Positions 2,924 to 39,607 of a stretch of DNA of 64,000 bases are shown here, in pieces. Each line of letters begins with the position of its first letter. The first letter of the stretch is position 1. The notes beneath the pieces are model-generated. The model did no database searches. It had not been told where the DNA came from and saw nothing but the letters and a program-made list of their open reading frames with translations. The DNA comes from a phage, in the NCBI GenBank assembly GCA_012813795.1, contig GCA_012813795.1_4087.1; one strand, 5' to 3'. A program made the position numbers and the translations under genes.

Positions 2924-2945
2924 TTACATTTCCTCGGACAAAAAA

Positions 2946-3083
2946 TTAGTCGAGATAAAATCTCGACTGGTGTTTAATTTTTCCATTTTTGACAGCTTTC
3001 TTGCGGTCCACGTGCACTTGAGCCTTATTAAACTCATTACAGTGCTTTGCAACAAAGTTGTTTACTTTAGATTTCTTAGCCAT
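2946..3083 (-). CDS. small highly basic protein (45 aa), not in ORF track
   Basis: Hand-translated MAKKSKVNNFVAKHCNEFNKAQVHVDRKKAVKNGKIKHQSRFYLD; GGAG SD 5 nt upstream of ATG; fills the gap between neighbours; hairpin GTCGAGAT..ATCTCGAC overlaps the 3' end. Confidence 0.45.
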   Translation of the reverse strand: MAKKSKVNNFVAKHCNEFNKAQVHVDRKKAVKNGKIKHQSRFYLD

Positions 3084-3085
3084 AA

Positions 3086-3559: not shown

Positions 3560-3599
3560 GATCTATCCTTGATCGTCATCGCACATCCATGTGCTGGTG

Positions 3600-5481: not shown

Positions 5482-5900
5482 TATACACCTTCATATTCAT
5501 CAAGAAAATCTTCGATAATCATTTCAGCTTCATCCATATGCATAGCATCAACTTCAACAATACGAACTTTAGATGTATCCCAAATCATATAACTAGGAAC
5601 ATTGTCCGGCTCGTATTCATTTTTGTACTGAACTGCATCGTAACCTTCAGTATCACAATACTCAATAAGTGATCGCCATTCGTCATCACTACCCAAATCC
5701 TCACACAGAAGCACGTTATCAACGTCAACTTCTAATACATGCAAGTACACTGTGTCAGCATCAACAACGTTCAGTGGGCTTCTCAGCTTGCGTAATGCAG
5801 CCTCAAGAGCACTATGCTTCCCTCCCATATGCAAACCACCATACGGAATGTAGAAGTTGTCAATTTTAACAGTACTTGCATGGTATAGAATCATCATCAA
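5481..5900 (-). CDS. hypothetical protein
   Basis: 139-aa minus ORF; no FamA motif. Confidence 0.6.
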   Translation of the reverse strand: MMMILYHASTVKIDNFYIPYGGLHMGGKHSALEAALRKLRSPLNVVDADTVYLHVLEVDVDNVLLCEDLGSDDEWRSLIEYCDTEGYDAVQYKNEYEPDNVPSYMIWDTSKVRIVEVDAMHMDEAEMIIEDFLDEYEGV

Positions 5901-6496
5901 TCCTCAGTGAGAATACAGTTCAGGTACGAACACAGTTCATCGTAAAAGAGTTTGTCCAGCACTGTAAGATAACAGATACCGTTCTCTTTCATTGCAGCCT
6001 GTATTTTATCATAACCATTCACTGTGTCAAGGATTTCTTGATAAGATAATGCATCATCGTTAACAGTACTGCTCTGGAATGCCATTTCTTCTATGTTATC
6101 GATGGGTTCCTCATCGGAATTTAAGAAGCCTCCATTTTGATATATAATGTAATCTTCATTCCATGATTTAGTGAAACGGAGCAGGATGGGTTCATTAGCG
6201 AACATTTCGATATCGCCACTTTCAATGTCGTATGAACAATATAGATTACAGTCTTCATCTATGAATTCTGCCATAAAGATTGCAGTTCGAGAACCATCAT
6301 ATACATAAACTCCAGTTTTGTTCATCTCAACATCAACTGCCATTCCATTTTTGAATTGCATTCGAATCGTGATTTTAAGACTTTGGAGTATGTTATTTTC
6401 TGTATCTTTAACACTATACAATCCACGATATCGTAACCACAAATCTTTGATAGTACTTAAAGAAATGATTAAGTCTTCATTGGGATCTTTTTTCAT
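5897..6496 (-). CDS. FamA paralog
   Basis: 199 aa; motif EEMAFQSSTVND. Confidence 0.65.
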   Translation of the reverse strand: MKKDPNEDLIISLSTIKDLWLRYRGLYSVKDTENNILQSLKITIRMQFKNGMAVDVEMNKTGVYVYDGSRTAIFMAEFIDEDCNLYCSYDIESGDIEMFANEPILLRFTKSWNEDYIIYQNGGFLNSDEEPIDNIEEMAFQSSTVNDDALSYQEILDTVNGYDKIQAAMKENGICYLTVLDKLFYDELCSYLNCILTED

Positions 6497-7098
6497 TCTG
6501 GAATTACCATGTCCGTAATTAATGTGGGCTGTTCAATACATTCAGGGTTAATAACAATGAACATTTTACGTAAACTTTTCACTTTGTACCAATCATTCAG
6601 TACTGAAACCATCAGCCACAATTCTTCTGGTGTAGTGGTAACTTCACCGAGTACACTCATTTGAAACAAAGCACCCTTGCAATCTTCAAGTGAAGTCAGT
6701 TTTGTTTTGTATCCTGATTCAACATCCATGAATGTTTTTGTCTTAGCATCGTATACGATGTACACACCCTTACCATCATCTAAAGTTAAAAATACCGGAG
6801 AGCCAGTGCTAAATTTACATTCATTAAACTCAGGAAACAGGTCATTAACTTCTTCATCTGGAACTTCTGTCAATTCCAGTGCTGAATAGTCAGTATAGAT
6901 ATTAGTAATCTCAATACTATATTTGTTGTACCAAGTCGCAAATGGTGTAGATTTACCTTTTTTGAATAATTTAAAATCACTTTTTGAACCGTACTTTTGG
7001 AATAGTTCTTTTTTAGCTTTAACTAAATCAGGGGCAATAGCTAATAAATCACGTAGTGCTTTTTCGTATTGTAAGTATTCTTTTCTGATATTACTCAT
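6493..7098 (-). CDS. FamA paralog
   Basis: 201 aa; motif KGALFQMSVLGE. Confidence 0.65.
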   Translation of the reverse strand: MSNIRKEYLQYEKALRDLLAIAPDLVKAKKELFQKYGSKSDFKLFKKGKSTPFATWYNKYSIEITNIYTDYSALELTEVPDEEVNDLFPEFNECKFSTGSPVFLTLDDGKGVYIVYDAKTKTFMDVESGYKTKLTSLEDCKGALFQMSVLGEVTTTPEELWLMVSVLNDWYKVKSLRKMFIVINPECIEQPTLITDMVIPE

Positions 7099-7630
7099 TG
7101 TAACCCTCTAAAAAATAATCTAATGTATCAAGTACATCACTATCAAAAAAGCAATTATTAACTACAACGATACCAGTATTATGTTCTAAATCATAACATT
7201 TATCCAGTACATTGATGCATTCATTGTACTCAATGATATCATGAAGAGTACTGTGCTGAAAGTGTTCTTCTTCAGTGTACTCGCAGTAATTAATATCAAC
7301 ACTGAACGATTGGTCGTTTCTTTTGCACGGATATAATTTAGTAGACTTTCGTCCAGACCATGTAATTGAATAACAACCAATCGAATTCTGTGGGATTTGT
7401 GTACCAGCATGAAGCATAATGTACAGAGCTTGCGAACTGTATGATTCAACGTACAAACGGTTCTTATCTGCATTCATAACACAACCATCAATTGACATGC
7501 TTAGTGAATGTGACATTCTACTGGCTTTCCTGATACCACGGCAGAAATTCACATAACGCTGGCGTAAGCTGTTAACTTTCTCAGGCCATAGCTCAAATTC
7601 TTTAGTATTTGATAATGTTGCAATGTGCAT
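7091..7630 (-). CDS. FamA paralog
   Basis: 179 aa; motif EEEHFQHSTLHD. Confidence 0.65.
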   Translation of the reverse strand: MHIATLSNTKEFELWPEKVNSLRQRYVNFCRGIRKASRMSHSLSMSIDGCVMNADKNRLYVESYSSQALYIMLHAGTQIPQNSIGCYSITWSGRKSTKLYPCKRNDQSFSVDINYCEYTEEEHFQHSTLHDIIEYNECINVLDKCYDLEHNTGIVVVNNCFFDSDVLDTLDYFLEGYNE

Positions 7631-7632
7631 TA

Positions 7633-8235
7633 TTATTCCTTAATAACTGGTATAGCAGACCAAATTCGTTTCATTAGTTCATCTTCTAATACCACATCAG
7701 TACTGATCTTTTTGTAGTTCATTGATAATAGAAAATTACATTTCAGTTCTGATTTTAATTTTTCATAAAGATCAATGTTCATATGCATTTCTTCATATGA
7801 AGGTAAAGAATGAATTAATGTATTTTGAAAATACCATTCTTCGCTGAAATCTTTCACTTCAACACTTTTGATATTCTTAAATGAATCCTTATCAAAATAA
7901 TATGAAACATCAGAACCATTATAATGTGAAAATGTTTTGAATAATTTTATTTCATTTGTACTACGAAGAATTCTTTCATAGGACAGAATTTTACTATCTT
8001 CTAATTCACCATGAAGTATCAGTGAAATATCAAAATCATTTGCAAGTCCAGCACCAAGGCGTTTGAATGCTAGTGTAATTCGTTGTTCACATGCCGAGAT
8101 TTCAATCCTGTAAAAATCAGTTGCATACGTTAACATAGAGTATGGGAGATGCAACTTTTCATTATTAGAAATACTTTTAGCTAACGTAATGACAGGGTTA
8201 AGCATTTTATTAAGAATAGGCATGTCAATGATCAT
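7633..8235 (-). CDS. FamA paralog
   Basis: 200 aa; motif EEWYFQNTLIHS. Confidence 0.65.
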   Translation of the reverse strand: MIIDMPILNKMLNPVITLAKSISNNEKLHLPYSMLTYATDFYRIEISACEQRITLAFKRLGAGLANDFDISLILHGELEDSKILSYERILRSTNEIKLFKTFSHYNGSDVSYYFDKDSFKNIKSVEVKDFSEEWYFQNTLIHSLPSYEEMHMNIDLYEKLKSELKCNFLLSMNYKKISTDVVLEDELMKRIWSAIPVIKE

Positions 8236-8236
8236 A

Positions 8237-8740
8237 TCATAATTCTCTTAGTTTTTTCAATACATAGTGTAGTACTTCATCTTCATTTGCATACGATGTG
8301 TACATGAGAAATTTGCAACAAGTACTGTTAAGATAGCACATGTAGGTGAACATTGCACTATAATTATTCACAGTACTGTTCTGAAATTCAACTTCATCAA
8401 TTTCACCCAATGATACAGGTCGCATGTTGCAATCTACACCATCAATTTTTACAACAGTAGTTCCTGGATGAAAGACTGCGGATTGTGAACCTATGGTGCT
8501 TGTATCGAAACTTGGTGCATCATAGATAGGACTATTGCTATCAAAGAGCATGAAAATGTCATGGTCTAAACCTCTTTTCTGCTCAAATACAACTCGGATC
8601 ATACCATCTTTTTGTATTTTAAGAATAATATCTGGAGCCAGTTCGAATCGACCATATTGTTCATTGATATATTTTTCTTCAAGAATTTTATGTAATTCCA
8701 CAAAGTCTTTAGTACTAAAGTGTTCCATCATATCCCTCAA
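8237..8740 (-). CDS. FamA paralog
   Basis: 167 aa; motif EVEFQNSTVNN. Confidence 0.65.
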   Translation of the reverse strand: MRDMMEHFSTKDFVELHKILEEKYINEQYGRFELAPDIILKIQKDGMIRVVFEQKRGLDHDIFMLFDSNSPIYDAPSFDTSTIGSQSAVFHPGTTVVKIDGVDCNMRPVSLGEIDEVEFQNSTVNNYSAMFTYMCYLNSTCCKFLMYTSYANEDEVLHYVLKKLREL

Positions 8741-9173
8741 CTAATTTTGTAATTTCTGCTCTTCGTACATCAATGTCATGAGCAAATGATATGGATGTGA
8801 AACCACGTTCTGCTGCAATGGCTCGCAACTGTAGGAGAAGTAATAACGGATATATCACTTCATCAGAATACAAAGTACTTAATTGAAATATGGTTGCTTC
8901 ATCAATCTCAGTACTTAAATCTATACTTTTAATATCAATGATTAACTGTGTATTGAAATACCATACATTGTCATTGACATAATCTATAGTAGTATTATCC
9001 ATTACACTATAATCAATGTATCTTTCATTTGACCATAATGTCATCATATCATCGCCGTCTGATGGATAGCTTACATCAAACCATGAACCTGATTTTCGAG
9101 CTTTACCATTATCCAGTTCATTGAGGCAGTACTGGATTAACTTTTTCAGTAATTCGTAATCGTCTTTATTCAT
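8715..9173 (-). CDS. FamA paralog
   Basis: 152 aa; motif EATIFQLSTLYS. Confidence 0.65.
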   Translation of the reverse strand: MNKDDYELLKKLIQYCLNELDNGKARKSGSWFDVSYPSDGDDMMTLWSNERYIDYSVMDNTTIDYVNDNVWYFNTQLIIDIKSIDLSTEIDEATIFQLSTLYSDEVIYPLLLLLQLRAIAAERGFTSISFAHDIDVRRAEITKLVEGYDGTL

Positions 9174-9651
9174 TGCATTTCCAGAATATAGGATGTTTGT
9201 TAAGTGTTTGAAATATCATATCAAATGTAAATTTGTAATAAGAATAAACACCGAAATTAATTGATATAGAATTTAAATTAGTTTCATGCACCATAGCACT
9301 ATGTATCAGTACTGCATTTCTATGAAACTCATTATCAAGGCTCACTTCAGCCATAAAATCATCTAAAGTTCTGTCGCCGTTCTTTTTCTCGTATATGATT
9401 TCACCACTGGGTTCAATGAATACTGAACTTTCCCTTGATAGGATCATGTTTCGTTTCACAATAACATTTTGAGATTCTTGACAGTTGAGTTCACAAAATG
9501 TCCATGAGCCACAGAACACAGATATAATGTCGTTGTTTTTCACGAAGTTAAAGGGAATGCCATCAATCATTATCTGTACTTCGTGCACAAATTTATGAGA
9601 ATACTTCTCAAGAATTTTACAAAATTTAATAACGTCTGCTGGATTTAACAT
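9166..9651 (-). CDS. FamA-like (divergent)
   Basis: 161 aa; degenerate motif DNEFHRNAVLIHS. Confidence 0.55.
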   Translation of the reverse strand: MLNPADVIKFCKILEKYSHKFVHEVQIMIDGIPFNFVKNNDIISVFCGSWTFCELNCQESQNVIVKRNMILSRESSVFIEPSGEIIYEKKNGDRTLDDFMAEVSLDNEFHRNAVLIHSAMVHETNLNSISINFGVYSYYKFTFDMIFQTLNKHPIFWKCNE

Positions 9652-10205
9652 TGGATTGCCTTAATATGTTCAATCATTGCCTTGGAGTTAGTACTCATGT
9701 ACTCAAATATATCATCATTCATGAGTTCTGTCAAGTTCAATTCAACCGTACATCCATCTGGTAAGTTCTTCTGACAGAACGGAGCCAGTACTGCACCGTA
9801 CAGTACATACGGATCATCAATAATTAAACTCTTCTGGAAGCAATCACAATCCATATCTTCTTCATTATCGAAGTAAGTACTGATATCTATTGCAGTACTA
9901 TCTTTACACATCAACTCTACATCACCTTTTTTAATTACTACACGCTTTGTCTTGGTATTGCGTAATCGGGTGTATTCTTTTATGTGTCGTTGTTGTGTAT
10001 TGATTTCAATGATATCTTTGTGGTTGTGCGTTATTGTGAAGTGCATATCATTATTCAAATCACCACTCAGAAAAAAATTAAGATCTCTTAGTACAGTGTG
10101 ATTGACTTTAATGTATTCACCTTCACGAATTAAACTCAGTGCAGCTACACAATCTTCAATGAACTTCTCAAGAAACTTTCCTCTACTGTAAAGACTATAT
10201 TTCAT
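9645..10205 (-). CDS. FamA-like (divergent)
   Basis: 186 aa; degenerate motif DDIFEYMSTNS. Confidence 0.55.
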   Translation of the reverse strand: MKYSLYSRGKFLEKFIEDCVAALSLIREGEYIKVNHTVLRDLNFFLSGDLNNDMHFTITHNHKDIIEINTQQRHIKEYTRLRNTKTKRVVIKKGDVELMCKDSTAIDISTYFDNEEDMDCDCFQKSLIIDDPYVLYGAVLAPFCQKNLPDGCTVELNLTELMNDDIFEYMSTNSKAMIEHIKAIQC

Positions 10206-10780
10206 GAGAACTCCCCAGTATTGTTGATAAGACTGTCCAGACCTTCATGAATTCTTTTAAATTCACTACGTTTAAAACGATGAACAATTTGTTGCAATGG
10301 ACAGTATTTGTCTTTCTTATCCAGTTCATGATTGACGATTGTACTGAAAAGTAATAAATCCAATTCGTTAGTACTGTACATAGTACTTAACTGGAATAGT
10401 TCTTCTTCTATAGTACTACTGTTAAGATTAATCTTTGGAATTTTTTTACCTGAAATAACAATCCCTGCAAATTCACTTGTCCCTGGAACTTCAGCATTTC
10501 CTCCAATAATATAATCGTAGTTAATGTACCCATCGTTATTGGTTAAATCTTCTTTATTGTACTTAATTATCAGAAAGACACGTAGATCATTCATCGAAAC
10601 TACTGCATGATCATACATACCTTCCTGGTCTTTAGTAATCGCCAAACGCATATATGGGAGATTAAATGTCTTTCTTGTTTTACATAAATCACTATTAAGA
10701 ATAGCATTCACTTTCAAAACCATCTTAGTGTAATATTGATACTCTTCGGACATGTAATTATAAAGATTTGAGAAATGCAT
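10202..10780 (-). CDS. FamA paralog
   Basis: 192 aa; motif EEELFQLSTMYS. Confidence 0.65.
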   Translation of the reverse strand: MHFSNLYNYMSEEYQYYTKMVLKVNAILNSDLCKTRKTFNLPYMRLAITKDQEGMYDHAVVSMNDLRVFLIIKYNKEDLTNNDGYINYDYIIGGNAEVPGTSEFAGIVISGKKIPKINLNSSTIEEELFQLSTMYSTNELDLLLFSTIVNHELDKKDKYCPLQQIVHRFKRSEFKRIHEGLDSLINNTGEFS

Positions 10781-11330
10781 TTAATTCCTCCAGTAATTCT
10801 TCTTGTGTTTCAGTACTTTCATTGTATAAATTATTGAAAGCGGAACACTCCCCACTACCAAGTTGCATTGATAGTTGATATACAAAATCAGCTTTAGCTA
10901 TCATATCATAACCTGGGAGCAACGACAACTGGAAAAGATATGCTTCTCGCTCTTCTGGATTTTGTAGCTCAGGTGCAATATGAAGATATTCTTCATCATC
11001 ATAATAATCATCGTACAAATTTCTGACGATTAATTCGTTAGTTTCTTTGAGTTTATTCACAGTAAGACTACAATCAGAAACTGAACCCAGAAATTTACTC
11101 TCTCTGCCTGATGCCACATAAGAAGCATCAACTGACCATATATTTTTGGTTTTATGTTGAATGCAGTGTTGTATTTGGATATTAGCATAACGATACAAAG
11201 TACTGCAATCAAAAACTAATCGGTACATTGGATTGTTGAAGTAATGAAAAATATTCTCAGTTCTTTTTTGTTCATCTAACTTATGAGTAAGTTCTTCTAG
11301 TACTTTAAAAATATCAATTAGTGTTTTCAT
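10758..11330 (-). CDS. FamA paralog
   Basis: 190 aa; motif EAYLFQLSLLPG. Confidence 0.65.
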   Translation of the reverse strand: MKTLIDIFKVLEELTHKLDEQKRTENIFHYFNNPMYRLVFDCSTLYRYANIQIQHCIQHKTKNIWSVDASYVASGRESKFLGSVSDCSLTVNKLKETNELIVRNLYDDYYDDEEYLHIAPELQNPEEREAYLFQLSLLPGYDMIAKADFVYQLSMQLGSGECSAFNNLYNESTETQEELLEELNAFLKSL

Positions 11331-11868
11331 GTTCTTTTCTCGTTTGTGCGTAGTTTTTCAAGTCCTTGAGTAATACTACTAATTGATCATCAGTGAGTAA
11401 TGATGCTGTTGCACTATATGACATATAATAATTATTGAGATTGAAATCAAATTTATAGTTACGTGCTAAAGCTTCAATCGTAAGTGCATCAGTGATTAAT
11501 TTATCGTGAGTTACAGAACTCTGGAAATTTTGTTCTTCTAAATTCTCAGTACTGAACAACGCAATAGGATCATATGATGGTTCTTTGTAATCAACTGCCT
11601 CTTTCATTCGAGGATTACGTGAAATAAAAGCCCAAGTACTGTCATATGAAAAATCAACAACACAGTCTTCCTCATCACCTTCATGTGGATAAATGCACAG
11701 AAAAGTTTTATTTTCTTCTGTGAACATCTGCTGCGTTGCAATACCCTCTCCTGTGTATTCAATTTCATAATCGAAACCGATTCTTAATTTACGTCCCTGT
11801 GAATTACACGTTTCAAGAAGTTTTCCCAGTTCGTTGTAAATTTGTAAGATTAATAGGTAATTGTTCAT
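11314..11868 (-). CDS. FamA paralog
   Basis: Track ORF 11314..11925 trimmed to internal ATG at 11868 (MNNYLLIL...), preceded by GAGGA SD; the discarded N-terminus translates the terminator hairpin; motif EEQNFQSSVTHD. Confidence 0.6.
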   Translation of the reverse strand: MNNYLLILQIYNELGKLLETCNSQGRKLRIGFDYEIEYTGEGIATQQMFTEENKTFLCIYPHEGDEEDCVVDFSYDSTWAFISRNPRMKEAVDYKEPSYDPIALFSTENLEEQNFQSSVTHDKLITDALTIEALARNYKFDFNLNNYYMSYSATASLLTDDQLVVLLKDLKNYAQTRKEHENTN

Positions 11869-11904
11869 ATGATATCCTCGGTTAAATAATATTAAAATAA
11901 TAGC

Positions 11905-11934
11905 AAAGAAAAAAGCCAGAGTCAATACCCTGGC
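11905..11934 (-). terminator. rho-independent terminator of the chemoreceptor cassette
   Basis: GCCAGAG..CCCTGGC hairpin followed on the minus strand by UUUUUUCUUU, directly after the stop of 11942..13354. Confidence 0.6.
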
Positions 11935-11941
11935 TTTAAAA

Positions 11942-13354
11942 TTATTTCACGTTAAAAATCGAAGTGGCTTTTTGTAAAGCATGTACTTCAGACTGTTGAT
12001 TGTCTACCATCATCATTGTGTCCTTTACATGCTCCGCATTTTGCTGTACTGAACGGTCCATCATATTAACACTCTCAGTAACCTGAAGGATTGCAATACT
12101 TTGTTGTTCAGCCATTATAGCTAAATCATCAATGAACTGCAAGAGTGAATCAACATTTTTTACAATAGAATCAATATCACTTGCAGTTTCGTTGATTTGT
12201 TCTATTACTTGGTTGTTGTTTTTTACGGAGTTATCAACGATTTCTTTAATTTCTTTACTACATGCATCACATTTCATTGCTAAGTTACGAACTTCCTGTG
12301 CAACAACAGAGAATCCACGTCCATGTTCACCCGCTTTAGCAGCTTCAATACTGGCATTTAAAGAAAGAATATTAGTCTGGAAAGCAATAGTTTCTATATT
12401 TTTGAGTATAGCAACTATAGCATTAGAATCTTCTTTAATTCTATCCATCTGCTCTTTGCAATTATTGATACTTTCAATTGCATTAGTACTGGATTCTTTT
12501 GTAGTTTTAACCATACTTTTTGCAGTATTGGAGTTATCAGATGTATTTGCAGATGTAGCACTTAATTCTTCCATAGCAGCAGCGATTTGAGTAAGTGCCT
12601 GTCCTTGTGTTTCAGTTCTGAAAGCTAAATCATTACTTTTACTTTCGAGATGATAGGAGTTGCTTTTCATTGACTGAACTGTAATTTGTACTTGTTCAAT
12701 TGCCTCACGCATAGCTGATATTGTTTTACTAAAAGTCTGTGCAAATTCGGAGTTGAAATGATTATTTTGTATTTCTAAAGTAATATTGCCGTCTTCAGAA
12801 TTCACTGATCTTGCAATTCGTTGAATTTCATCTGCTTCATTTGCATCTTTCTCCATAATGTACGCAACGTACATCAGAACTATTGCCTGAACTACTACAT
12901 ATATTGCGTGCTCTATAATGTGCCATAACGAAATATGGTGAAAAGAAAACACAAATAATATTGGAATTCCAGCACCCTGTAACAATCCAAATAATAAATG
13001 ATGTATAGCAATCAGTACTGAACCTGCTAATACACAACGCCAGTCACGCCATACAATCAATAAACTTAAAAAGATAAAAACTGTAAAGTGCCATTCCACC
13101 ATCCCTACACCAAGATGTATTAGTAACGCACTCCAGCACATCACATTTATACTTAACAACGTTCGAGTGAATGCATTACTTTCAACAAATAGTAAAGGAG
13201 TTAGCATTACTAATAATAAAACTGCACCGATTAGTGCAATAATAAAACTACCATGAACAACACCGGAAACTAAAGTAGCAGCAAATAAAGCCCCTATACA
13301 ACATAGTACTAAATTATCGGCTTTTTTGCGTATATTTTCTAAATTACTTTTCAA
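11942..13354 (-). CDS. methyl-accepting chemotaxis protein (MCP)-like polytopic membrane protein
   Basis: 470 aa; N-terminal half has several hydrophobic helices; C-terminal half carries the MCP signalling-domain signature [37 protein letters not shown] (canonical chemoreceptor hairpin-tip motif); no periplasmic sensor or HAMP domain evident. Confidence 0.8.
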
Positions 13355-13899
13355 CGTACTTCTCCATAATTTAAATTATCATCAATGTATTTTTTTAATA
13401 ACAAATGTATTTTCTCTAGTTCCTCTTGGCTTTTGGTAAGTAACTTGTCCATAATTGTAATTTCATAATGATCTTCTAATAACCTAAGTAATTTATAACC
13501 CATTTCTAGCTTATTATAAGTTAATTGATCATATGACATAGCAGCCATGAACATTTGTTCTTTGAAAGTGTTTGAATCAATTTTAGCTACAGCTAACTTC
13601 TCGTCATCTTCATAAGAATGTTTTACCAGTATCTTAGTGTAGCGTGATACATTATATAGACGAATTTCACTATCTCCGCGTAGAATTTCCATCTTGTATT
13701 CTTGTCTACGTTGTGTTGCATTAATGATCTTTACGACATAACCTAAACCACTAATGAACAATGTAATATTAGAATATACTGATGGAGATTCTTTTGGGTT
13801 GATATTTAATTCACCTAACTCAAAATTAACAGTATTATTATCAGGACTGTTTTTAAAAATATAAATCATGCATTCAATAATATTTACAATGCTATCCAT
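13351..13899 (-). CDS. hypothetical protein, first gene of the MCP cassette
   Basis: 182-aa minus ORF overlapping the MCP-like gene by 4 nt (coupled); own promoter upstream. Confidence 0.6.
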
Positions 13900-13930
13900 A
13901 AAATACGCTCTCTTTTAAATAGGTTACAAT

Positions 13931-13959
13931 ATTCTAACATTCTACATTACTAATGTCAA
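13931..13959 (-). promoter_or_regulatory. sigma70-like promoter of the MCP cassette
   Basis: Minus strand reads TTGACA-N17-TAGAAT. Confidence 0.55.
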
Positions 13960-13970
13960 CCTATAAACGA

Positions 13971-13994
13971 AAAAAGACCCATCAGGGTCTTTTA
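13971..13994. terminator. bidirectional rho-independent terminator
   Basis: GACCC-atca-GGGTC hairpin flanked by A5 and T4; contains the stop codon of 13982..14533. Confidence 0.55.
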
Positions 13995-14533
13995 AATGCT
14001 CGTAAGTCTCTCAGAATGTTTGGTAGAGTGCCTTGTTCCATTACGGAATTCAGTACATTAAGATCCATTGTAAGATAGAAACCATCAGGGATGTAATCAC
14101 GAACTAACTTATCCAACTCAATGATATCCATTGTTAACTGATCATATAGAGTACTGTACTGGAAAAGCACCCCATCGTCAACATTTAAATCTATTAAGTT
14201 ATCACCGTGATTGCATTGGCAAAAGTTATTAGCAAGATTTTTATGTTTAATGCTGCTTATGTACACATATGGATAACGTGTGAGTACACGATTCTGTGCC
14301 TCCGAGCATCCATCTTGTATTTCTTCTTCTGATAACTCAGGGTGCAAAAGAAACAATGAACTATCACTAATGTACAAAGTACCGATGCAACCGATTTTAT
14401 TATTACTGTGTCGAATATAACATGAACCAAGATTTGATATAGGTTTTATATCTTGTAGTACAATAGGAAAAAAGTTAATAATAACTTTAGATAGATCTTT
14501 TAGTACTGGGTTTATTGTTAATGGTAGACTCAT
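13982..14533 (-). CDS. FamA paralog
   Basis: 183 aa; motif DGVLFQYSTLYD. Confidence 0.65.
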   Translation of the reverse strand: MSLPLTINPVLKDLSKVIINFFPIVLQDIKPISNLGSCYIRHSNNKIGCIGTLYISDSSLFLLHPELSEEEIQDGCSEAQNRVLTRYPYVYISSIKHKNLANNFCQCNHGDNLIDLNVDDGVLFQYSTLYDQLTMDIIELDKLVRDYIPDGFYLTMDLNVLNSVMEQGTLPNILRDLRAFKRP

Positions 14534-15162
14534 TTCATTATCCTTGAACCGCCTATATAGGTATCGTTAAAATAATTATCATTTTCAAACGCCATGTTAT
14601 TCAAATCAGCAAGGTCATCGAAGTAACCGCCTTCAATACATATTTCTTTGAATACATCACTGTACTTGAATAAATTTACTAAACTAAAGGTAATGTCTGC
14701 TCTTTGAACTTTAGTACCTTTAAGGTGCTCATGTAGATATGGGAAAACAATAGTATATAATAAATCATTCGGTTCATATAATAAACTATATTGAAAGAAT
14801 GATTCTTCTGAATAATCCATATCATTGAGGTTCAATCTAAGTACCTCATTACGATCCAGTACTAATGTTTTATCTGACAAATCGAAGTTCAAGCAGTGCG
14901 TATAAAATGGTCCTAAGTTCCCAACTCTATTTTTATCTGAACCACTAGGACTGAAATCAAGCCATACTTCATTCAACTCACTATCATCTGATTCTATGTA
15001 CTCAAGAACATTGTTATGAAAACGCATGTCATAACATTCAAGGAACTTATCATCCTTCAGACGTGGTAATATGTCCGTTAATGCTCGTGCATACGCAATG
15101 CAGTGCTTATACTCTAGGCGATGAAACACGTACTTTGAAATTGGTTTTCTTTTTGAACTCAT
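14530..15162 (-). CDS. FamA paralog
   Basis: 210 aa; motif EESFFQYSLLYE. Confidence 0.65.
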   Translation of the reverse strand: MSSKRKPISKYVFHRLEYKHCIAYARALTDILPRLKDDKFLECYDMRFHNNVLEYIESDDSELNEVWLDFSPSGSDKNRVGNLGPFYTHCLNFDLSDKTLVLDRNEVLRLNLNDMDYSEESFFQYSLLYEPNDLLYTIVFPYLHEHLKGTKVQRADITFSLVNLFKYSDVFKEICIEGGYFDDLADLNNMAFENDNYFNDTYIGGSRIMK

Positions 15163-15166
15163 TCAA

Positions 15167-15781
15167 TTAATCCCCAATTGAACATATGTTTTCTTCAGTA
15201 ATACTTTTTAATTTAAGTAATAACCCATCCCAGTCCTGTTCTTTGAATATTTCAGGTTCTAATTTGATATACTTTGTCAATGGTAATTTAGGGGATAGAT
15301 TTTTACAAAATTTAATAGCATCAATAACACAGGCGTTGTGAATTAATGAGTACTGAAACAATGTTTCGTCGAGTACATCATCATCTGGAATATCCAGAAA
15401 TTCAGGTTCATGTGTTGTGACATAGTAATCTTCTTCTTCATCCATATCAATGTAGACTTTATTAAGATAATTAAGTCCAGATGAACTAATAAAAATACCA
15501 TCGCTTCTTGAGATACAAATATAAGAACTGGGCATATATATATCTAAATCTCTTGCACTGTTGTGGTCGGTCAATTCTGTTCTTACGCAGATGATAGCTT
15601 TACAATTTTCATCCATTAAATCAAACCATTTGTCACCACGGTCAAATTTGTATGTAGAATTTTGTTCAGTACTGGTATGAAATGAAATAACACGATTTGT
15701 TAGACGCCATGCAAATTCATGAATACGAATTAGTTCTAAACTTATCTGACTAATTTTATCTATTGTTTCGTTTGTCAGCAT
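15167..15781 (-). CDS. FamA paralog
   Basis: 204 aa; motif DETLFQYSLIHN. Confidence 0.65.
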   Translation of the reverse strand: MLTNETIDKISQISLELIRIHEFAWRLTNRVISFHTSTEQNSTYKFDRGDKWFDLMDENCKAIICVRTELTDHNSARDLDIYMPSSYICISRSDGIFISSSGLNYLNKVYIDMDEEEDYYVTTHEPEFLDIPDDDVLDETLFQYSLIHNACVIDAIKFCKNLSPKLPLTKYIKLEPEIFKEQDWDGLLLKLKSITEENICSIGD

Positions 15782-16262
15782 TTTTTAAAATCCTTACCTG
15801 TTTAATAAAGTGCTTCATTGAAGCAAATTCAAAACTAATTCTCTGAAACTCACTATATTTTTTAAAGTACGATAGAATAAACATAGCTTTAAGTTCAGAG
15901 TCATTGTAAATTAATGAATTTTGGAAATAATTTTCATCCGTTAAATCAGTAATGTACGGAAGTATATGATTAATAAATTGTGCTTTTCCTCTTTGGTGTG
16001 AAATATATTTTATATCAGAACCATCTGAACGAAATAGAATATAGTCTGTTTTACCTTTCTCAAACATAGAATGAGCCAGACGATCTTCAGCTTTAGTATG
16101 AAAATATATACAATGAGCACCATGACGTATATTAAAAGACGATTCAGTACTGTGATGGATAGCGAAATATCTATGCAAATTAACTTCATTAACGTACAAA
16201 TAAGTTATTGTATCAAGACAATCCTTTGCGAACTTTATTAGTTCTGATAGTTTCCTCGACAT
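15756..16262 (-). CDS. FamA paralog
   Basis: 168 aa; motif DENYFQNSLIYN. Confidence 0.65.
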   Translation of the reverse strand: MSRKLSELIKFAKDCLDTITYLYVNEVNLHRYFAIHHSTESSFNIRHGAHCIYFHTKAEDRLAHSMFEKGKTDYILFRSDGSDIKYISHQRGKAQFINHILPYITDLTDENYFQNSLIYNDSELKAMFILSYFKKYSEFQRISFEFASMKHFIKQVRILKNADKRNNR

Positions 16263-16271
16263 ATAGCACCT

Positions 16272-16742
16272 TTATAAATGTTCCAAAAAAGTATTAAAGA
16301 AATCCAAATCAATATAAAAGGAATTAAGTCCCTCGCTTCTTAAGTATGTCACAATCACAGATAGTAAAAGTATATTACTTGTATATAATAATGAGTTTTG
16401 AAAGTACATCTCTTCATTACATATTTCAATATGTGAAGGTAATACTTTAAAATCACTGTCATGAACACAAATTTTATCAAGGTATGAATGGTACTGAATA
16501 TAATGGTAATCAAAGCTCATGAATGATTCATCATCACACACTGATTCCCCTATGTTTAAAACTTCAGTACCAGCGTAATACCATGCATTATGAGTATTTG
16601 ATTTTTCAAACACTTTGTCAAATTTACCATTATTACCAGCATGATAAATCTTCATCAAAATCTTTGCAAAATCAATACACGCCGCATATGAATCGTATCG
16701 GATGACATGACCATCCAGTACTAACTCGTCGGATTCTATCAT
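16272..16742 (-). CDS. FamA paralog
   Basis: 156 aa; motif EEMYFQNSLLYT. Confidence 0.65.
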   Translation of the reverse strand: MIESDELVLDGHVIRYDSYAACIDFAKILMKIYHAGNNGKFDKVFEKSNTHNAWYYAGTEVLNIGESVCDDESFMSFDYHYIQYHSYLDKICVHDSDFKVLPSHIEICNEEMYFQNSLLYTSNILLLSVIVTYLRSEGLNSFYIDLDFFNTFLEHL

Positions 16743-17221
16743 AGAGAAAGTTCCTCTGCAAGTAATTCCTCAATAAGTTCAAGATGTACTAAATCCAGAT
16801 AGAAAGCACTGGCATTTACACTATTGAGATATGAATACAACATTATAGCACGAACTGTTTCTTCTGTATAGATCAAAGATAACTGAAAGTGCGTCTCTTC
16901 AGTAGGCTTATAAGAACCTATATTATCAAGTACAATTGTCTCTTCCTCCCATTGGAAGTAACATACAAGTGTATTCCCTGGGGTAAAGGTCATGTACAAA
17001 TCCATTAGATTGTATTCTGAATCATCATAAATCGTAGCGTAGATGGCCTCTCTTTTGGATTTGAATGTAGGTAGTTTTATGACAAATGAACTTTTATCAC
17101 AGCTTTTAATCTTATCGACATATGAACGCTTTTGGAACTCAGTACTTTCCATTATAAGATGAATTTTGTAAATCTTTTTTGCAAAATCAATATCTTCCTG
17201 GAATGTCATTAATCTCTCCAT
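16739..17221 (-). CDS. FamA paralog
   Basis: 160 aa; motif EETHFQLSLIYT. Confidence 0.65.
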   Translation of the reverse strand: MERLMTFQEDIDFAKKIYKIHLIMESTEFQKRSYVDKIKSCDKSSFVIKLPTFKSKREAIYATIYDDSEYNLMDLYMTFTPGNTLVCYFQWEEETIVLDNIGSYKPTEETHFQLSLIYTEETVRAIMLYSYLNSVNASAFYLDLVHLELIEELLAEELSL

Positions 17222-17640
17222 TTTTTTCCTGGGAAATGCTTATCGTAGAACTCATCATCACTAAGCATATAATCAGGAATTTCTCTTTCGATCTTTAAAA
17301 ACTCTACATTAGTTGAAAAATATTCAGGGTTAGACTTAGGCACAAAGTCCATTAAACCCTCCTGAATCTTCTTGAGAAGGTCAATATCACCACGGTAAGG
17401 ACATACTAAGCTGTACTGAAATAGCTCGTCAGGTAGCATTACAGCGAGATTCTCAATGTCATATTGTGAGTTATCTTTGTGAGAATAGATATAGAATTTA
17501 TTCTCCGGTACTGGTTGTGTTACTTTAGAATAATACAATTCGTTATTATCATCCAGCATTACACTATGAGTGCAACCATACGTTTGAAATCTTGTATTAA
17601 GTAAAGCCTTTGATTTAACTTTTATAATTTCAAAATACAT
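17209..17640 (-). CDS. FamA paralog
   Basis: 143 aa; motif DELFQYSLVCP. Confidence 0.65.
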   Translation of the reverse strand: MYFEIIKVKSKALLNTRFQTYGCTHSVMLDDNNELYYSKVTQPVPENKFYIYSHKDNSQYDIENLAVMLPDELFQYSLVCPYRGDIDLLKKIQEGLMDFVPKSNPEYFSTNVEFLKIEREIPDYMLSDDEFYDKHFPGKKWRD

Positions 17641-17978
17641 TAATCCACCTCAAGTGTATATTTGTGCATCATAAATGATTTAACCAGAAATAAATCTTTG
17701 TGTTTTAGTTTCTGAAGAGACTCCAACAAAATATTCTGTACATCTAATAATTCGTATACATCATATTCAAATGCAGTGCTCATTTGAAATAGTTCTTCTT
17801 CACTTAAATTGTAAAGAAGTTCCAAATTCGTATCTTTGTGTTTAGTAGAAATAAAAGATACAATGGATTCATCCTCTTCTACAGAGAAGATAACCCAATG
17901 TCCAGCCTTGCATTCTTTTTGGACAATGAAAATTTCATCACCATCGTGCATGTACTCAATATCAACTACTTTTCCCAT
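17640..17978 (-). CDS. FamA paralog (short)
   Basis: 112 aa; motif EEELFQMSTAFE. Confidence 0.65.
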   Translation of the reverse strand: MGKVVDIEYMHDGDEIFIVQKECKAGHWVIFSVEEDESIVSFISTKHKDTNLELLYNLSEEELFQMSTAFEYDVYELLDVQNILLESLQKLKHKDLFLVKSFMMHKYTLEVD

Positions 17979-18465
17979 TTAGATATCCCTTGCATACTTC
18001 AAAATCATTCAAATCAAAATAGAAGTCAGTTTCAATTTCATGCTTATATCGGAGAAAACTGTAGAGTGTTATGACATTCAATACCAACATATTCATAGTA
18101 GTACTTAACTGAAAGTAATCTTCTTCAGAAATTAGTTTTACATCTTCTTCATTGATACTACTCTTTTTATTACGACCCTTTTCATCACGTAAATCTACTA
18201 CAACTTCACCTTCTTTTGAGTAAGATAGGTAATTCATGCCTACACTATATTCACTATCATCAAATGATTCACAGAAGATTTCCATCATTTCGCCTGATTT
18301 CTGTGTATATGTTAAACAACTTTTCCTATCCCTGTTAAGACTCTTTTTTCGAGAATACATTGAACCAAATGCTGTAGTATTGTTCTTGAATTCATCATAG
18401 ATTTCGTAGATATCTTTTGCGTACTGTTCAATCTCATCGTAATTAAGCTTACTAATATCAGGCAT
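17962..18465 (-). CDS. FamA paralog
   Basis: 167 aa; motif EEDYFQLSTTMN. Confidence 0.65.
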   Translation of the reverse strand: MPDISKLNYDEIEQYAKDIYEIYDEFKNNTTAFGSMYSRKKSLNRDRKSCLTYTQKSGEMMEIFCESFDDSEYSVGMNYLSYSKEGEVVVDLRDEKGRNKKSSINEEDVKLISEEDYFQLSTTMNMLVLNVITLYSFLRYKHEIETDFYFDLNDFEVCKGYLNGKSS

Positions 18466-18962
18466 TACAATTCTCCTACACGATTAATATGATCCAACAT
18501 GATATCATAATCACAAAGGTCAAAGTAAAATTGGGCATCAGGTGGTAATTTTTTATGCAATTCAGATATTGCAGTTAATGCAAAAACCACATCTTCTGAA
18601 TAGATTGTGCAGTACTGAAAGTATTCACACTCATCATTGATATCAATGAGATCTATATCTTCGTACTCCAAAAATTCTTTATAAAAACGAAGTGTACCTT
18701 TCGCTTTCGCATTGAATCCAAAGAATGACGAACCAAGAATTCTTACATTATTATATGCTTCAACTTTGCTGTATAACATATGCATACGAAATGACAGGAC
18801 ACTGGATACCTGTACTGTATCGGTAAACATTTCACCACTTTTGGGGTACACATATGTAACGTCAAAATTAGTTTCAACATCTCTTAAAAAGTTATGAATG
18901 CGAATTAAATTGTCTGCAAAAGTTATAGCATTACTGTATGAGAGTTCAGGATTGAATTGCAT
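18465..18962 (-). CDS. FamA paralog
   Basis: 165 aa; motif ECEYFQYCTIYS. Confidence 0.65.
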   Translation of the reverse strand: MQFNPELSYSNAITFADNLIRIHNFLRDVETNFDVTYVYPKSGEMFTDTVQVSSVLSFRMHMLYSKVEAYNNVRILGSSFFGFNAKAKGTLRFYKEFLEYEDIDLIDINDECEYFQYCTIYSEDVVFALTAISELHKKLPPDAQFYFDLCDYDIMLDHINRVGEL

Positions 18963-19018
18963 GATATGATCCTTTTCGTATTAGATGAAAAAGATTATAT
19001 CATGCACAGAAGGAGGTG

Positions 19019-19555
19019 TCAAGAGGGATTACGAACAAAATTCCAAATTAGATCGTAAAAAGTAAGGTCAACATAAAAAGGAGGGAAGTTATTCTGTTTA
19101 AGCCAAGAGAACATGAATTGTACACCAACTATGTACGGGTCGTCAACAGTACTCATCTGAAAGAACAGTTCTTCGGTAAGTTCTTCTTCGATAAATGGAA
19201 GAACAATGTCAGTATCTACGTAAAAGAACTTTATTCTGTCATAGTAAGGTGAATAACTTAAAAAGCCACCGCTGTATTTTGGATCATATTCAGGGTCATT
19301 AAATTTGTTGATATTGAACATATCAACACTGTACCCGTCATCATCCAGACCTCTTGAACGAATACTGAAGTAATCATAACTTGAATCAATAAATCTGTCA
19401 GATTTTACCCAAATAGAAGTCTCTCTGTTATTACAAATGAACTCATGGATTTGCATAAGATCTTGAGCAGTACTGCGAGCGTGTTCAAAAGTGTCAACCT
19501 TTAAATGGTGAGTACCGTCCCAATCATCTTTCTCTATTCTGTCATAATCTAACAT
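19019..19555 (-). CDS. FamA paralog
   Basis: 178 aa; motif EELFFQMSTVDD. Confidence 0.65.
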   Translation of the reverse strand: MLDYDRIEKDDWDGTHHLKVDTFEHARSTAQDLMQIHEFICNNRETSIWVKSDRFIDSSYDYFSIRSRGLDDDGYSVDMFNINKFNDPEYDPKYSGGFLSYSPYYDRIKFFYVDTDIVLPFIEEELTEELFFQMSTVDDPYIVGVQFMFSWLKQNNFPPFYVDLTFYDLIWNFVRNPS

Positions 19556-19557
19556 AA

Positions 19558-19896
19558 TTAAACCTCTTTGTATTGGACAATAAATTCCAGTTTTCTTTGT
19601 AGTTCACATGGATAGTTATTCATTATATCTTTCATTAGTTGCTGATACTTAATTAACTTTTCAATATCTACAATTCTATTGTACTCCCATACTAATGATT
19701 CCTGAAATAACTCTTCTTCACTATAATCACTGTAATCAAAAATATGAAATACATCTCGTGCTAAATTATTAGTGATTATCTTGAACATATTCTTTTCATA
19801 TGTAAGATAATAAAAATGTTCTTTCTTGTGGTTATAACCTAACTCAATCATTACATAGTACTGATGTTTGGCTATAGTAACTTTTACTAAATCCAT
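19558..19896 (-). CDS. FamA paralog (short)
   Basis: 112 aa; motif EEELFQESLVWE. Confidence 0.65.
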   Translation of the reverse strand: MDLVKVTIAKHQYYVMIELGYNHKKEHFYYLTYEKNMFKIITNNLARDVFHIFDYSDYSEEELFQESLVWEYNRIVDIEKLIKYQQLMKDIMNNYPCELQRKLEFIVQYKEV

Positions 19897-20309
19897 CAGT
19901 ACTCAACCTCTACATGGATAGATTCAGGAAACTTAGTCATATGATCTTCTGGATAGTTCTGCATTGCTTTGATCATTTCTGCCTGTGTAGCACGGACGTA
20001 TTCAATTGGTGCTCCTGGTAAATCCCAGACTGTACTTTCCTGAAAGAATTCCTCTTCTAACAGTACTGTAAGATTTACAAAATCATTACGATAATTTTTT
20101 GAATCATCATATGTGAAGATTTTAAAAGACCCATTTTCATATAGTACAAGAACAAAATGGGAGAATTTTTGTAATGCACCACCCATTTCCACGACCGCAT
20201 GATTCAGTGTACAAATGACCTCTTTTTTCCTCATACCGAATTGGATTCTAATTTCTTTTTTCATAAAATCTCCTTCAGATGAGTACAAAATTTGTACAGT
20301 ATATTGCAA
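19896..20309 (-). CDS. FamA paralog
   Basis: 137 aa; motif EEEFFQESTVWD. Confidence 0.65.
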   Translation of the reverse strand: MQYTVQILYSSEGDFMKKEIRIQFGMRKKEVICTLNHAVVEMGGALQKFSHFVLVLYENGSFKIFTYDDSKNYRNDFVNLTVLLEEEFFQESTVWDLPGAPIEYVRATQAEMIKAMQNYPEDHMTKFPESIHVEVEY

Positions 20310-20911
20310 TCCGCAATGTACAATAACTCAAGAATTTTGGAATTCTGAAATTCCTTGCACAGAACATTAGAACTGTATGTAGCTGCTGAATCCACATCCA
20401 TAATCAAATCCTGTTGGAATGCAACATCAGTACTTGGATTGAGATCCACATCTTGTACTGCACCTTTATTATAAAATGAAGTACCTGTGCCTAAATTCTT
20501 ACCCAATCCAATAATGAAAGAAGTACTGGAATTTAATGTAAGTTGATACAGATTGCTTCTTACATCGTAGAAGAAACGATTTAAATCACGATCAATCTTG
20601 AAATCATCATTGCATTTAATCAAATCACGCTTTGACATATATGGTTTAATATACATAAAGTTCACACCATTATATGAAAGCTCAAAGTCTTTTTGTGTTT
20701 TATTAAATGATTTAACTAAATCACGAAATGTAGAAGGTGATTGACTCAGTACTGTATCGTAATAATATTCAGCAGTACTGATAAGTAGCTTAGCTTTCTC
20801 GTGAATATCAAATGTGGAAGTTTTGTTTAAATTGATCAATTCTTCTCTCCATTTCATCAATACAAGTATCAATGTCTTCATAATTTGCATATACAAATAC
20901 AGGAGCATCAT
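20261..20911 (-). CDS. FamA-like (divergent)
   Basis: 216 aa; motif DVAFQQDLIMD; overlaps upstream gene by ~100 nt, so true start is probably an internal Met (e.g. MKWREEL, ~20857). Confidence 0.5.
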   Translation of the reverse strand: MMLLYLYMQIMKTLILVLMKWREELINLNKTSTFDIHEKAKLLISTAEYYYDTVLSQSPSTFRDLVKSFNKTQKDFELSYNGVNFMYIKPYMSKRDLIKCNDDFKIDRDLNRFFYDVRSNLYQLTLNSSTSFIIGLGKNLGTGTSFYNKGAVQDVDLNPSTDVAFQQDLIMDVDSAATYSSNVLCKEFQNSKILELLYIADCNILYKFCTHLKEIL

Positions 20912-21356
20912 CCCTTAAACGAAGGATATTCCACAAAGAAATACCAAACACTTCAATATCATTGTACACTGTACTTAACTGAAAAACACTTTCTTCATTA
21001 ATTTCAAGGTGTGGTAAATCTATGTGTTTGTCAACATCGCTTAATGATGTAACATCAACTGCACTCGCACCTGCATTAAAAGTATTCAGTACTGTCGAAT
21101 CTTTTCTGTACACTAATCCATACAATTCCCCATTGTTATGGGTGCACATAGATAATTTTCCATTTGTTTCAGGAACAGAACCGAACTTAATAATTGTTCG
21201 GCCTGACGATCTGAAAGACATATACGTTATGGAATCGTTTTGTGAAACAATTAGCTCACTCCTAGAAAGTATACGCTCATCTTGCAGTACTACTTCCGTC
21301 AATTTGGTTAGTGTACTTAACTTATTTGCAAAAGAAATTATCTCATCATAGGTCAT
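20808..21356 (-). CDS. FamA paralog
   Basis: 182 aa; motif EESVFQLSTVYN. Confidence 0.65.
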   Translation of the reverse strand: MTYDEIISFANKLSTLTKLTEVVLQDERILSRSELIVSQNDSITYMSFRSSGRTIIKFGSVPETNGKLSMCTHNNGELYGLVYRKDSTVLNTFNAGASAVDVTSLSDVDKHIDLPHLEINEESVFQLSTVYNDIEVFGISLWNILRLRDDAPVFVYANYEDIDTCIDEMERRIDQFKQNFHI

Positions 21357-21582
21357 AGTGTTCGCTCATTTCATTCATATATTCATAGCACGATAGGTAT
21401 ATAATTTTTTTAATCATAAAAGACATATCAGATTTGTCACTGTCCTCTGCAATACGAAAAATATAACGCATATTAGCAAAGATATAAAGAGGTATATCCG
21501 ATTCTTCAGTACCAGAAAATATATCTATAATAAACCCATAACTAAAATCCGATGCTGGTGCTTGTTCAAAAGTATTGTCCAT
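21346..21582 (-). CDS. hypothetical protein
   Basis: 78-aa minus ORF. Confidence 0.5.
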   Translation of the reverse strand: MDNTFEQAPASDFSYGFIIDIFSGTEESDIPLYIFANMRYIFRIAEDSDKSDMSFMIKKIIYLSCYEYMNEMSEHYDL

Positions 21583-39372: not shown

Positions 39373-39482
39373 TGGTTTCTCCTTATGTTATTTGTTATGA
39401 TTATAGCATACGAAACATTTTTGTCCCACCCATGAACCCCTTCACACGAGCTAAGCAATTACCCGCCCCTAGTTGCCCTAAG

Positions 39483-39503
39483 TTATAATAACAGGTCGTT
39501 ATT
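39483..39503. repeat. perfect 8-bp-stem palindrome
   Basis: ATAATAAC-aggtc-GTTATTAT in the non-coding interval 39373-39607. Confidence 0.6.
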
Positions 39504-39537
39504 ATCACTGGGGTTATAAGGTATTGGTTCATTTTTT

Positions 39538-39584
39538 AATTGAGTCAATTATTTTTTGACTCAATTATTTTCTGACTAATAGTT
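39538..39584. repeat. tandem direct repeats (candidate operator/regulatory site)
   Basis: TTGAGTCAATTATTTT / TTGACTCAATTATTTT / cTGACTAATAGTTTT; each unit has a TGA(G/C)TCA half-palindrome. Confidence 0.6.
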
Positions 39585-39607
39585 TTAGTACTGAATCATT
39601 TAATTCA

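Follow-up and report, generated by a model that had tools for sequence, protein, structure and literature searches.

The 64-kb stretch of phage DNA analysed here (64,000 nucleotides of contig GCA_012813795.1_4087.1, hereafter the window) belongs, on the basis of megablast, to the Asteriusvirus group of approximately 350-kb Escherichia coli jumbo phages (PBECO4, 121Q, G17), and its closest record is that of phage A4. Our subject is the non-coding interval 39373–39607, which fills exactly the gap between two minus-strand open reading frames (ORFs), one of 140 aa (38950–39372) and the other of 69 aa (39608–39817); the genes around it are all on the minus strand. To its left (36.2–38.9 kb) lies an array of genes for proteins of 65–90 aa, 12 of 13 of which are mutual paralogs, and to its right a block of small early genes, which are again all minus-strand and have very strong promoters of the host type. 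An original prediction had described the non-coding interval and its two neighbourhoods correctly, and had interpreted a palindrome and tandem repeats within the interval as an operator array at a transcriptional module boundary. The boundary is real and its repeats are non-random, but it is not primarily transcriptional. Very probably, judging from its relatives, the interval is the junction of a direct terminal repeat (DTR) of ~20.5 kb with unique DNA, in which case base ~39454 would be one physical end of the packaged chromosome.

In megablast comparisons the right-side homology to most relatives halts abruptly at window positions 39584–39606, and several of their records begin or end some 130–150 nt beyond this point, a combination which pointed to a terminal-repeat boundary. 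The genome end falls at the homologous base in at least five relatives with determined termini. The annotated “Direct Terminal Repeats” of vB_Ec-M-J (1..21525) end 152 nt past the stop codon of its homolog of the 69-aa gene. At this same base, AGGTTACCCGCCC, the records of G17 and WPEC3 start and those of fEgEco12 and BF17 end; the other end of the G17 record is base 1 of vB_Ec-M-J. The termini of fEgEco12 were determined with PhageTerm and confirmed by restriction digests, its DTR being 20,993 bp (PMC13070987), and a repeat of ~20 kb was inferred for G17 from coverage (PMC6563267).

Transferred to the window, the boundary reads GAGCTA/AGCAATTACCCGCCCC (39448–39469), where the slash marks the predicted cut between 39453 and 39454. 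At the other edge base 76 of vB_Ec-M-J aligns to window position 59880, which puts base 1 at the step between 59944 and 59945, and the final 22 nt of the Muenster record match window 59966–59945. The predicted DTR length of 20,491 bp is inside the 19.7–22.5 kb range of the relatives. A single copy of the DTR, flanked on either side by unique DNA, is present in the window, which hence derives from a collapsed or permuted assembly. The block so delimited has a GC content of 38.8% (33.1% to its left) and contains ten perfect TTGACA-16/17-TATAAT promoters, all on the minus strand, among 114 promoter-like sites (65.8±8.1 in shuffles); GC skew switches sign near 60 kb. Homology to several termini which were determined independently gives the predicted junction good support.

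The two edges share a short motif. When each is read inwards from its outer side, along the strand that provides the 5' end of the virion DNA, the right-type edge is GCTA/AG in the window, in Klebsiella phage Muenster (Alcyoneusvirus; GTGCTA/AGCC, PhageTerm), in fENko-Kae01 (TGGCTA/AGGC, PhageTerm) and in Pectobacterium phage CBB (Mimasvirus; TCGCTA/AGCG, coverage), and GCTAA/AG in G17-type phages. The left-type edge is CACTA/AG in the window (CCACTA/AGTAGG) and Muenster (CCACTA/AGTCC), CACTAA/AG in G17-type phages (CACTAA/AGTAGG in vB_Ec-M-J), and CGCTA/TA in both Kae01 and CBB (CCGCTA/TATC). Thus both edges have CTA(A)/AG, in inverted orientation, in Asteriusvirus and the RaK2 group (window, Muenster, vB_Ec-M-J), and CTA is kept before the cut at both edges in two more distant lineages, fENko-Kae01 and CBB. 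The edges of vB_Ec-M-J agree at 9 of 10 bases (GTCGCTAAAG and GTCACTAAAG). In addition, CAGTACT is found 9–13 nt outside the cut in all five left-type edges.

An inverted edge motif is what the staggered-nick, strand-displacement model of DTR formation predicts. In phages T7 and T3 a short exact DTR is produced by staggered nicks and strand-displacement synthesis at the concatemer junction. The exact, non-permuted DTR ends predicted here resemble those of T7 and T3, and the inverted CTA/AG would fit the opposite-strand nicks which the model places at the repeat edges. Unlike the present repeat, that of T7 is 160 bp long and is processed in a reaction coupled to T7 RNA polymerase; the two sequences show no similarity.

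Table 1. Features at and near the predicted DTR edges of the window (a slash marks the predicted cut).
Feature	Position	Strand	Remarks
First gene outside the DTR, 140-aa orphan	38950–39372	-	26% GC; moron-like; own promoter
5' leader of the 140-aa cargo gene, with its ribosome-binding site (AAGGAG)	39373–39399	-	Outside the DTR
Predicted sigma-70-type promoter, GGGACA-16 nt-TATAAT	39400–39427	-	Extended -10 TG; 10/12 match
Predicted terminus and DTR boundary, GCTA/AGC	39450–39456		GCTAAGC invariant in six-way alignment A1
Predicted DTR, single copy	39454–59944 (20,491 bp)		Early-gene block, genes all minus-strand
End motif TTACCCGCCC	39459–39468	+	Common to G17-type Asteriusviruses; unique in window
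Palindrome ATAATAAC-aggtc-GTTATTAT	39485–39505 (core); 39481–39509 (extended)		8+5+8
Conserved block TATAAGGTATTGGTT	39515–39529	+	Kept in Muenster, RaK2 and RCIP0023; unique in window
Perfect 12-bp inverted repeat TAATTGAGTCAA-ttatttt-TTGACTCAATTA	39537–39567		Conserved core AGTCAATTATTTTTTGACT at 39543–39561
16-bp tandem units (two good, one degenerate)	39540–39587	+	Same DNA as the 12-bp inverted repeat
TTTAGTACTGAATCAT, copy of the genome-wide AGTACT motif	39584–39599	+	+134 from the end
Last gene of the DTR, 69 aa, phrog_17833	39608–39817	-	Homologs EcMJ_053, WPEC3_CDS001, G17_00001, A4_315
Other DTR edge, CCCACTA/AGTAGGC	59938–59951 (cut between 59945 and 59944)	-	CAGTACTG 9 nt outside

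The final ~155 bp of the predicted DTR constitute a non-coding, single-copy terminal block which holds the repeats together with an inverted pair of half-sites, AGTCAA...TTGACT. Three tandem units of ~16 bp had been proposed, of which two are good (TTGAGTCAATTATTTT and TTGACTCAATTATTTT) and the third (CTGACTAATAGTTTTA) is degenerate. The program TRF reports 39540–39577 (period 16, 2.4 copies, 90% matches); stretched to 39541–39586, so as to include the degenerate unit, the array has 2.9 copies at 83%. Because TTGA(G/C)TCAA, an odd palindrome, is contained in each unit, the two good ones double as a 12-bp inverted repeat (Table 1). This is the sole perfect inverted repeat in the window with arms of at least 12 bp and a loop of 3–10 nt, shuffles giving 0.05. 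Similarly, TTGASTCAA is present in the window at 39540 and 39556 only, and the pair AGTCAA-N≤60-TTGACT has its one instance in the terminal block. The interval also folds much better than shuffled sequences (z = -4.1 as RNA and -5.5 as DNA).

The perfect palindrome of the original prediction exists as well, and its arms lengthen to 12 nt at 92% complementarity (39481–39492 and 39498–39509). Palindromes with 8-bp arms are common in the window (45 observed, 15.5 in shuffles), and by itself this one is therefore unremarkable, being no rarer than chance. A permissive search of 39000–40000 with Rfam covariance models gave no match at E≤1. A small minus-strand ORF (39401–39532, 43 aa) is not taken to be a gene, because it runs across the DTR edge and lacks its ATG in the RaK2 group.

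A sensitive blastn search with the interval alone found matches in A4 and the Klebsiella RaK2 group only. Residues 39515–39604 are ~79–80% identical to RaK2-group phages, whereas the adjacent protein (window 39886–40350 against the last DTR gene of the RaK2 group) shows 40% identity; the non-coding block is thus better conserved than the neighbouring gene. In Muenster the match begins 60 nt inside the PhageTerm boundary, which is the window's own offset. Within an alignment of six sequences (A1) the 19-mer AGTCAATTATTTTTTGACT is invariant in all six, spacer included, and AGTACTGAA comes next. The left arm of the palindrome and TATAAT are kept in the RaK2 group, unlike the right arm; at the corresponding offset KP13-7 carries a different palindrome of 16 bp, GTGAATAATTATTCAC. 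The stem is 12 bp long in the window and 6 bp in the RaK2 group, and no compensatory changes were seen in A1. A 19-mer and spacer which are invariant while the stem varies in length argue for recognition of the DNA sequence over that of an RNA hairpin. A sequence-specific DNA function for the inverted core, probably protein binding, is plausible from this pattern. Matches of the 19-mer to the IHF and Fis consensus sequences were judged by eye too weak to claim. An exact scan of IMG/VR for the 19-mer gave 10 loci, the sole true relative being RaK2 itself; the others are unrelated and most of them are apparently inside coding sequence.

A diverged but alignable version of the block is present in G17-type Asteriusviruses, Kae01 and CBB, TATAAGGTATTGGTT of the window aligning with AAGGGATTACC of G17-type phages and CBB. 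The inverted pair AGTCAA...TTGAC(T/C) occurs in all five lineages at +64 to +125, that is, in the terminal ~125 bp, the second half-site of CBB being TTGACC rather than TTGACT. Its spacers across lineages are 7, 23, about 27 and 44 nt, and in every lineage TTGAC(T/C) is within or beside a T-rich stretch. The block is single-copy in A4 and RaK2-group genomes, and the window, Muenster, vB_Ec-M-J and G17 have AGTACT at +132 to +134. The TGA(G/C)TCA 9-mers and their tandem arrangement are restricted to the window and A4. Conservation in relatives, proposed as a check on the original prediction, is seen across genera for the inverted core, but not for the palindrome or the 9-mers. The AGTACTGAATCAT motif at first seemed to be inverted in G17-type phages relative to the window, but it is merely a near-palindrome which aligns directly.

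Two versions of the block cross genus boundaries, one shared by the window, A4 and the Klebsiella RaK2 group, the other by G17-type phages, fENko-Kae01 and CBB (CATAGTCCAATC, AAGGGATTACCTATGCATTTTT). In the window and A4 the block is Klebsiella-like while the flanking genes are G17-like, which suggests that the block has passed as a unit from one lineage to another. The distribution of the two versions implies that modules at the genome ends have been exchanged by recombination.

We might propose the following scheme. During packaging a phage endonuclease or terminase would cleave replicated DNA after CTA at the two edges of a single DTR copy, and, the cuts being on opposite strands, both virion 5' ends would start with AG. 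The terminal block, with its AGTCAA...TTGACT pair and flanking A/T tracts, would be where the machinery that processes the ends recognises the DNA or assembles on it, and the 12-bp arms and TGA(G/C)TCA tandem would represent a lineage-specific elaboration of the conserved core. The strand-specific nicking, the protein binding and the role in packaging are parts of the scheme which we infer. The block is unique, lies at a fixed distance from the cut, is better conserved than the gene beside it and has a cos-like layout; these points speak for a role in end recognition or processing, for which we would put the chances slightly under even. With regard to the locus as a whole we favour, with some assurance, a genome-end junction whose repeats are part of a cis-acting terminal block.

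The cos site of lambda consists of the nick site cosN and the adjacent terminase-binding repeats of cosB; SPP1 and P22 have pac sites. The layout described here would resemble lambda cos in that a cleavage point and a region rich in repeats and A/T tracts are within ~150 bp of each other, on the packaged side, and in the symmetric nicking of opposite strands. Unlike lambda, where the nicks are 12 nt apart and generate cohesive ends, the cut sites here would be ~20.5 kb apart and the intervening DNA would need to be duplicated.

The closest published analogue is found in the Twort-like and SPO1-like phages (Herelleviridae), the long terminal repeats (LTRs) of which are bracketed by 12-bp inverted repeats, TAAGTACCTGGG and CCCAGGTACTTA (PMC7596081). 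As in the Twort-like phages, the terminal repeats are multi-kilobase, exact and direct, they encode early host-takeover genes, and one short sequence, here CTA(A)/AG, is inverted at both edges. The motif itself is different and shorter, only TAAG(T) of the 12-mer being common to both. Furthermore, the DTR is ~20 kb here against ~8–13 kb there, the lineage is unrelated (T4-related RaK2-like jumbo phages of enterobacteria), and the conserved ~155-bp block is an additional feature.

Several points weigh against a genome-end junction with a cis-acting terminal block. The termini of the window phage itself are predicted by homology to relatives only. The edge motif in common is only 5–6 nt; Kae01 and CBB have TA, not AG, at one edge, and the register of the G17-type edges is shifted by one A. 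In most Asteriusviruses (G17-type) the block is strongly diverged although the terminase, whose genes lie outside the window, is presumably near-identical, so that recognition would need to depend on few shared elements. No protein partner was identified here, and the evidence fits a packaging role, end protection, an injection pause or termination alike.

Termination is the alternative which survives best, although we regard it as unlikely. An intrinsic terminator or insulator at the DTR edge, in which the AGTCAA...TTGACT stem and a T-run stop RNA polymerase, might part early transcription of the DTR from a unique region with its own promoter, or might block inward antisense transcription coming from the unique region or the DNA end. 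A terminator scan does flag 39537–39567 on the plus strand, where a 12-bp stem is followed by TTTTCT; on this strand a T-rich stretch holds or adjoins TTGAC(T/C) in the five lineages. The favourable folding of the interval and the presence in both the window and vB_Ec-M-J of a new promoter just beyond the DTR are in keeping with this, and the arm pairing has been lengthened differently in the window (12 bp) and G17 (13 bp), hinting at selection for pairing. However, the genes are all on the minus strand, where the hairpin is followed by AAAAAATG (AAAAAAUG) with no U-tract. Only the plus strand passes the scan, and neither a plus-strand gene nor a conserved promoter feeds into the hairpin. Just 3 of the 12 pairs in the stem are G-C; the G+C-rich stem-loop and U-tract of a rho-independent terminator are thus missing from the transcribed strand. 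The 6-bp stem of the RaK2 group has an invariant loop and shows no covariation or compensatory changes, the 23–44-nt loops of Kae01, CBB and G17 would make poor terminators, and in Muenster a canonical terminator is already present upstream of the block.

The operator array envisaged by the original prediction would have a phage or host transcription factor acting on the TGA(G/C)TCA repeats and/or the palindrome so as to control the adjacent promoter or an early-to-middle switch. A dyad combined with tandem units is the kind of architecture that dimeric DNA-binding proteins typically recognise, conservation of the core extends across genera, and a predicted promoter is ~110 nt off. One would expect an operator array for the early genes to recur at promoters or to overlap them. 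The motif does neither: it is not repeated elsewhere in the 64 kb, even though these include ~20 kb of promoter-dense early region, it is not beside promoter elements, and it does not overlap the -35 or -10 of any predicted promoter. The sole nearby promoter is ~110–160 nt away, across the DTR edge, and drives a variable, dispensable cargo gene which is missing in vB_Ec-M-J, although the block itself is conserved. At the second copy of the DTR, moreover, the motif would be at the DNA end with nothing downstream, and the palindrome is not conserved in the RaK2 group. We consider control of this kind improbable, and the operator reading is not supported. TTGACT was also tried by eye as a sigma-70 -35 box, on both strands in four lineages, and no acceptable -10 was found at 16–18 nt; the sole TTGACT-based promoter-like match is a weak one on the plus strand (TTGACT-16-AATAGT, 9/12).

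In phage T5 a non-coding repeat region belonging to the left terminal repeat (region 3, with the injection stop signal, abbreviated iss) is better conserved than the neighbouring genes (bioRxiv 10.1101/866236). By analogy, the DTR would enter first and have its genes transcribed from host promoters, and the block would pause transfer until early proteins act, or would protect the end. The position and context match T5, with a non-coding cluster of repeats and palindromes at the inner end of a long terminal repeat of host-promoter-driven early genes; the DTR is rich in consensus sigma-70 promoters and, as in T5, the block is better conserved than the adjacent gene. Unlike the block here (~155 bp), the T5 region is ~1.2–1.7 kb, some 8–10 times longer, overruns the edge of the LTR and has paired DnaA boxes, ~8 in all. 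DnaA boxes (TTWTNCACA) number 13 in the window against 12.3 expected, none of them being within the interval or close to it. The sequence shows no similarity to T5, and no two-step transfer has been reported in RaK2-like phages. An entry pause or end-protection site as the main function strikes us as very doubtful.

Least probable of all is an iteron-type replication origin, or a hairpin primer snapping back to duplicate the terminal repeat (a palindrome-primed processing step was proposed for the T7 concatemer junction), since the 2.4–2.9 tandem 16-bp units in very AT-rich DNA and the strong DNA hairpins which might recommend it are set against a tandem confined to the window and A4, only variably spaced inverted half-sites in the other lineages, and the lack of an adjacent initiator gene and of DnaA boxes.

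Immediately outside the DTR is a slot for cargo genes. The predicted promoter of the 140-aa gene is 27–54 nt outside the DTR edge and precedes the first gene beyond it; a terminator follows that gene at 38940–38911. The promoter is identical in A4 despite a different downstream gene: A4 departs from the window left of about 39395 and has in the slot a 272-aa endonuclease-like gene (locus L003, 2047–2865) with a weak match to phrog_681 (E = 3e-10). In vB_Ec-M-J the slot is without a gene, and this phage also has a fresh promoter just outside the DTR. As the window, A4 and vB_Ec-M-J differ in the gene they carry here or have none, the slot beside the DTR edge is a variable cargo site. Pfam and PHROGs searches with the flanking proteins were uninformative as to function except for the endonuclease-like match of the alternative cargo gene in A4.

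AGTACT is the commonest hexamer of the window, with 258 copies where about 21 are expected (e.g., 39587, 59957 and 59986); the longer CAGTACTRA is present 82 times (1.2 in shuffles). In coding DNA AGTACT is seen in each of the three frames (77, 34 and 62 copies), and it is ~3 times denser in non-coding DNA (8.8 vs 3.2 per kb). Most loci from A4, vB_Ec-M-J, the RaK2 group and CBB are enriched 10–30-fold. The excess points to selection at the DNA level; a literature search for AGTACT in connection with jumbo phages yielded nothing. Throughout the window the motif is abundant other than at 26000–32000 and 36000–38000, where it is absent. The latter stretch is the paralog array. The former is 98% identical to A4, whose annotation there includes a DNA ligase gene, and is ~45–50% covered in other Asteriusviruses.

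The early promoters on the minus strand between 40 and 59 kb fall into repeated classes in which AGTACT is embedded: AAAAAGTACTTGCA-N17-GTATAAT, TTGACAaagtatnt-AGTACTGTATAAT and cAGTACTATTGACA...gatAGTACTGGCATAAT (examples at 43062–43089, 46438–46465, 50217–50244 and 52028–52056, minus strand). Whole intergenic cassettes of 70–100 nt recur many times across the DTR. A hairpin, AAAGGGATTGACTCCGGTCAGTCCCTTT, is repeated 3–4 times (40914–40941, 43990–44017, 47299–47326 and 49758–49785, minus strand); its 5' arm bears a TTGACT -35 box, with TATTAT 17 nt downstream. The combination of a terminator-like stem-loop with a promoter is reminiscent of the “PeSL” shuffling modules of T4.

Just outside the other DTR edge, at 59945–60363, there are dense short tandems with a period of 9–10 bp: ACTCTAGTAC (3 copies), TCACTACTAA (2.7), AATGATTATA (3.8), TATGATTACC (2.9) and GTACTGATT (6.7). 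They are situated in a ~2-kb region spanning the edge (about 58250–60270) which has no convincing gene, only short unconserved ORFs. Repeats in helical phase beside a genome end would suggest a protein-binding array.

DTRs of ~20 kb have already been published for this clade and the kind of feature is therefore known; in the literature searched on these phages neither the boundary motif nor the terminal block was found to be described. A more far-reaching possibility, which we offer as speculation and think rather unlikely in its entirety, is that the Asteriusvirus, Alcyoneusvirus, Mimasvirus and Kae01 groups share one end-forming system, nicking after CTA at two inverted sites ~20 kb apart under the guidance of a ~155-bp AGTCAA/TTGACT block in two exchangeable “alleles.” The block could then double as a T5-like entry pause, and AGTACT, which is in 12-fold excess genome-wide and is also found beside both ends, could be another part of this DNA-handling system.

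According to PMC13070987, no more than five phages of this kind have known termini. Many genomes of the group have been deposited with arbitrary start points, and few termini have been reported. The three-part signature of GCTA/AG at one edge, CAGTACT-N9-13-CTA/ at the other and the AGTCAA...TTGACT block lets the true ends, and with them the early (DTR) gene set, be predicted from sequence, as was done for the window. The slot just outside the DTR is a hotspot for the exchange of cargo genes, and the signature provides concrete cis-elements for asking how a T4-related packaging machine makes exact 20-kb repeats.

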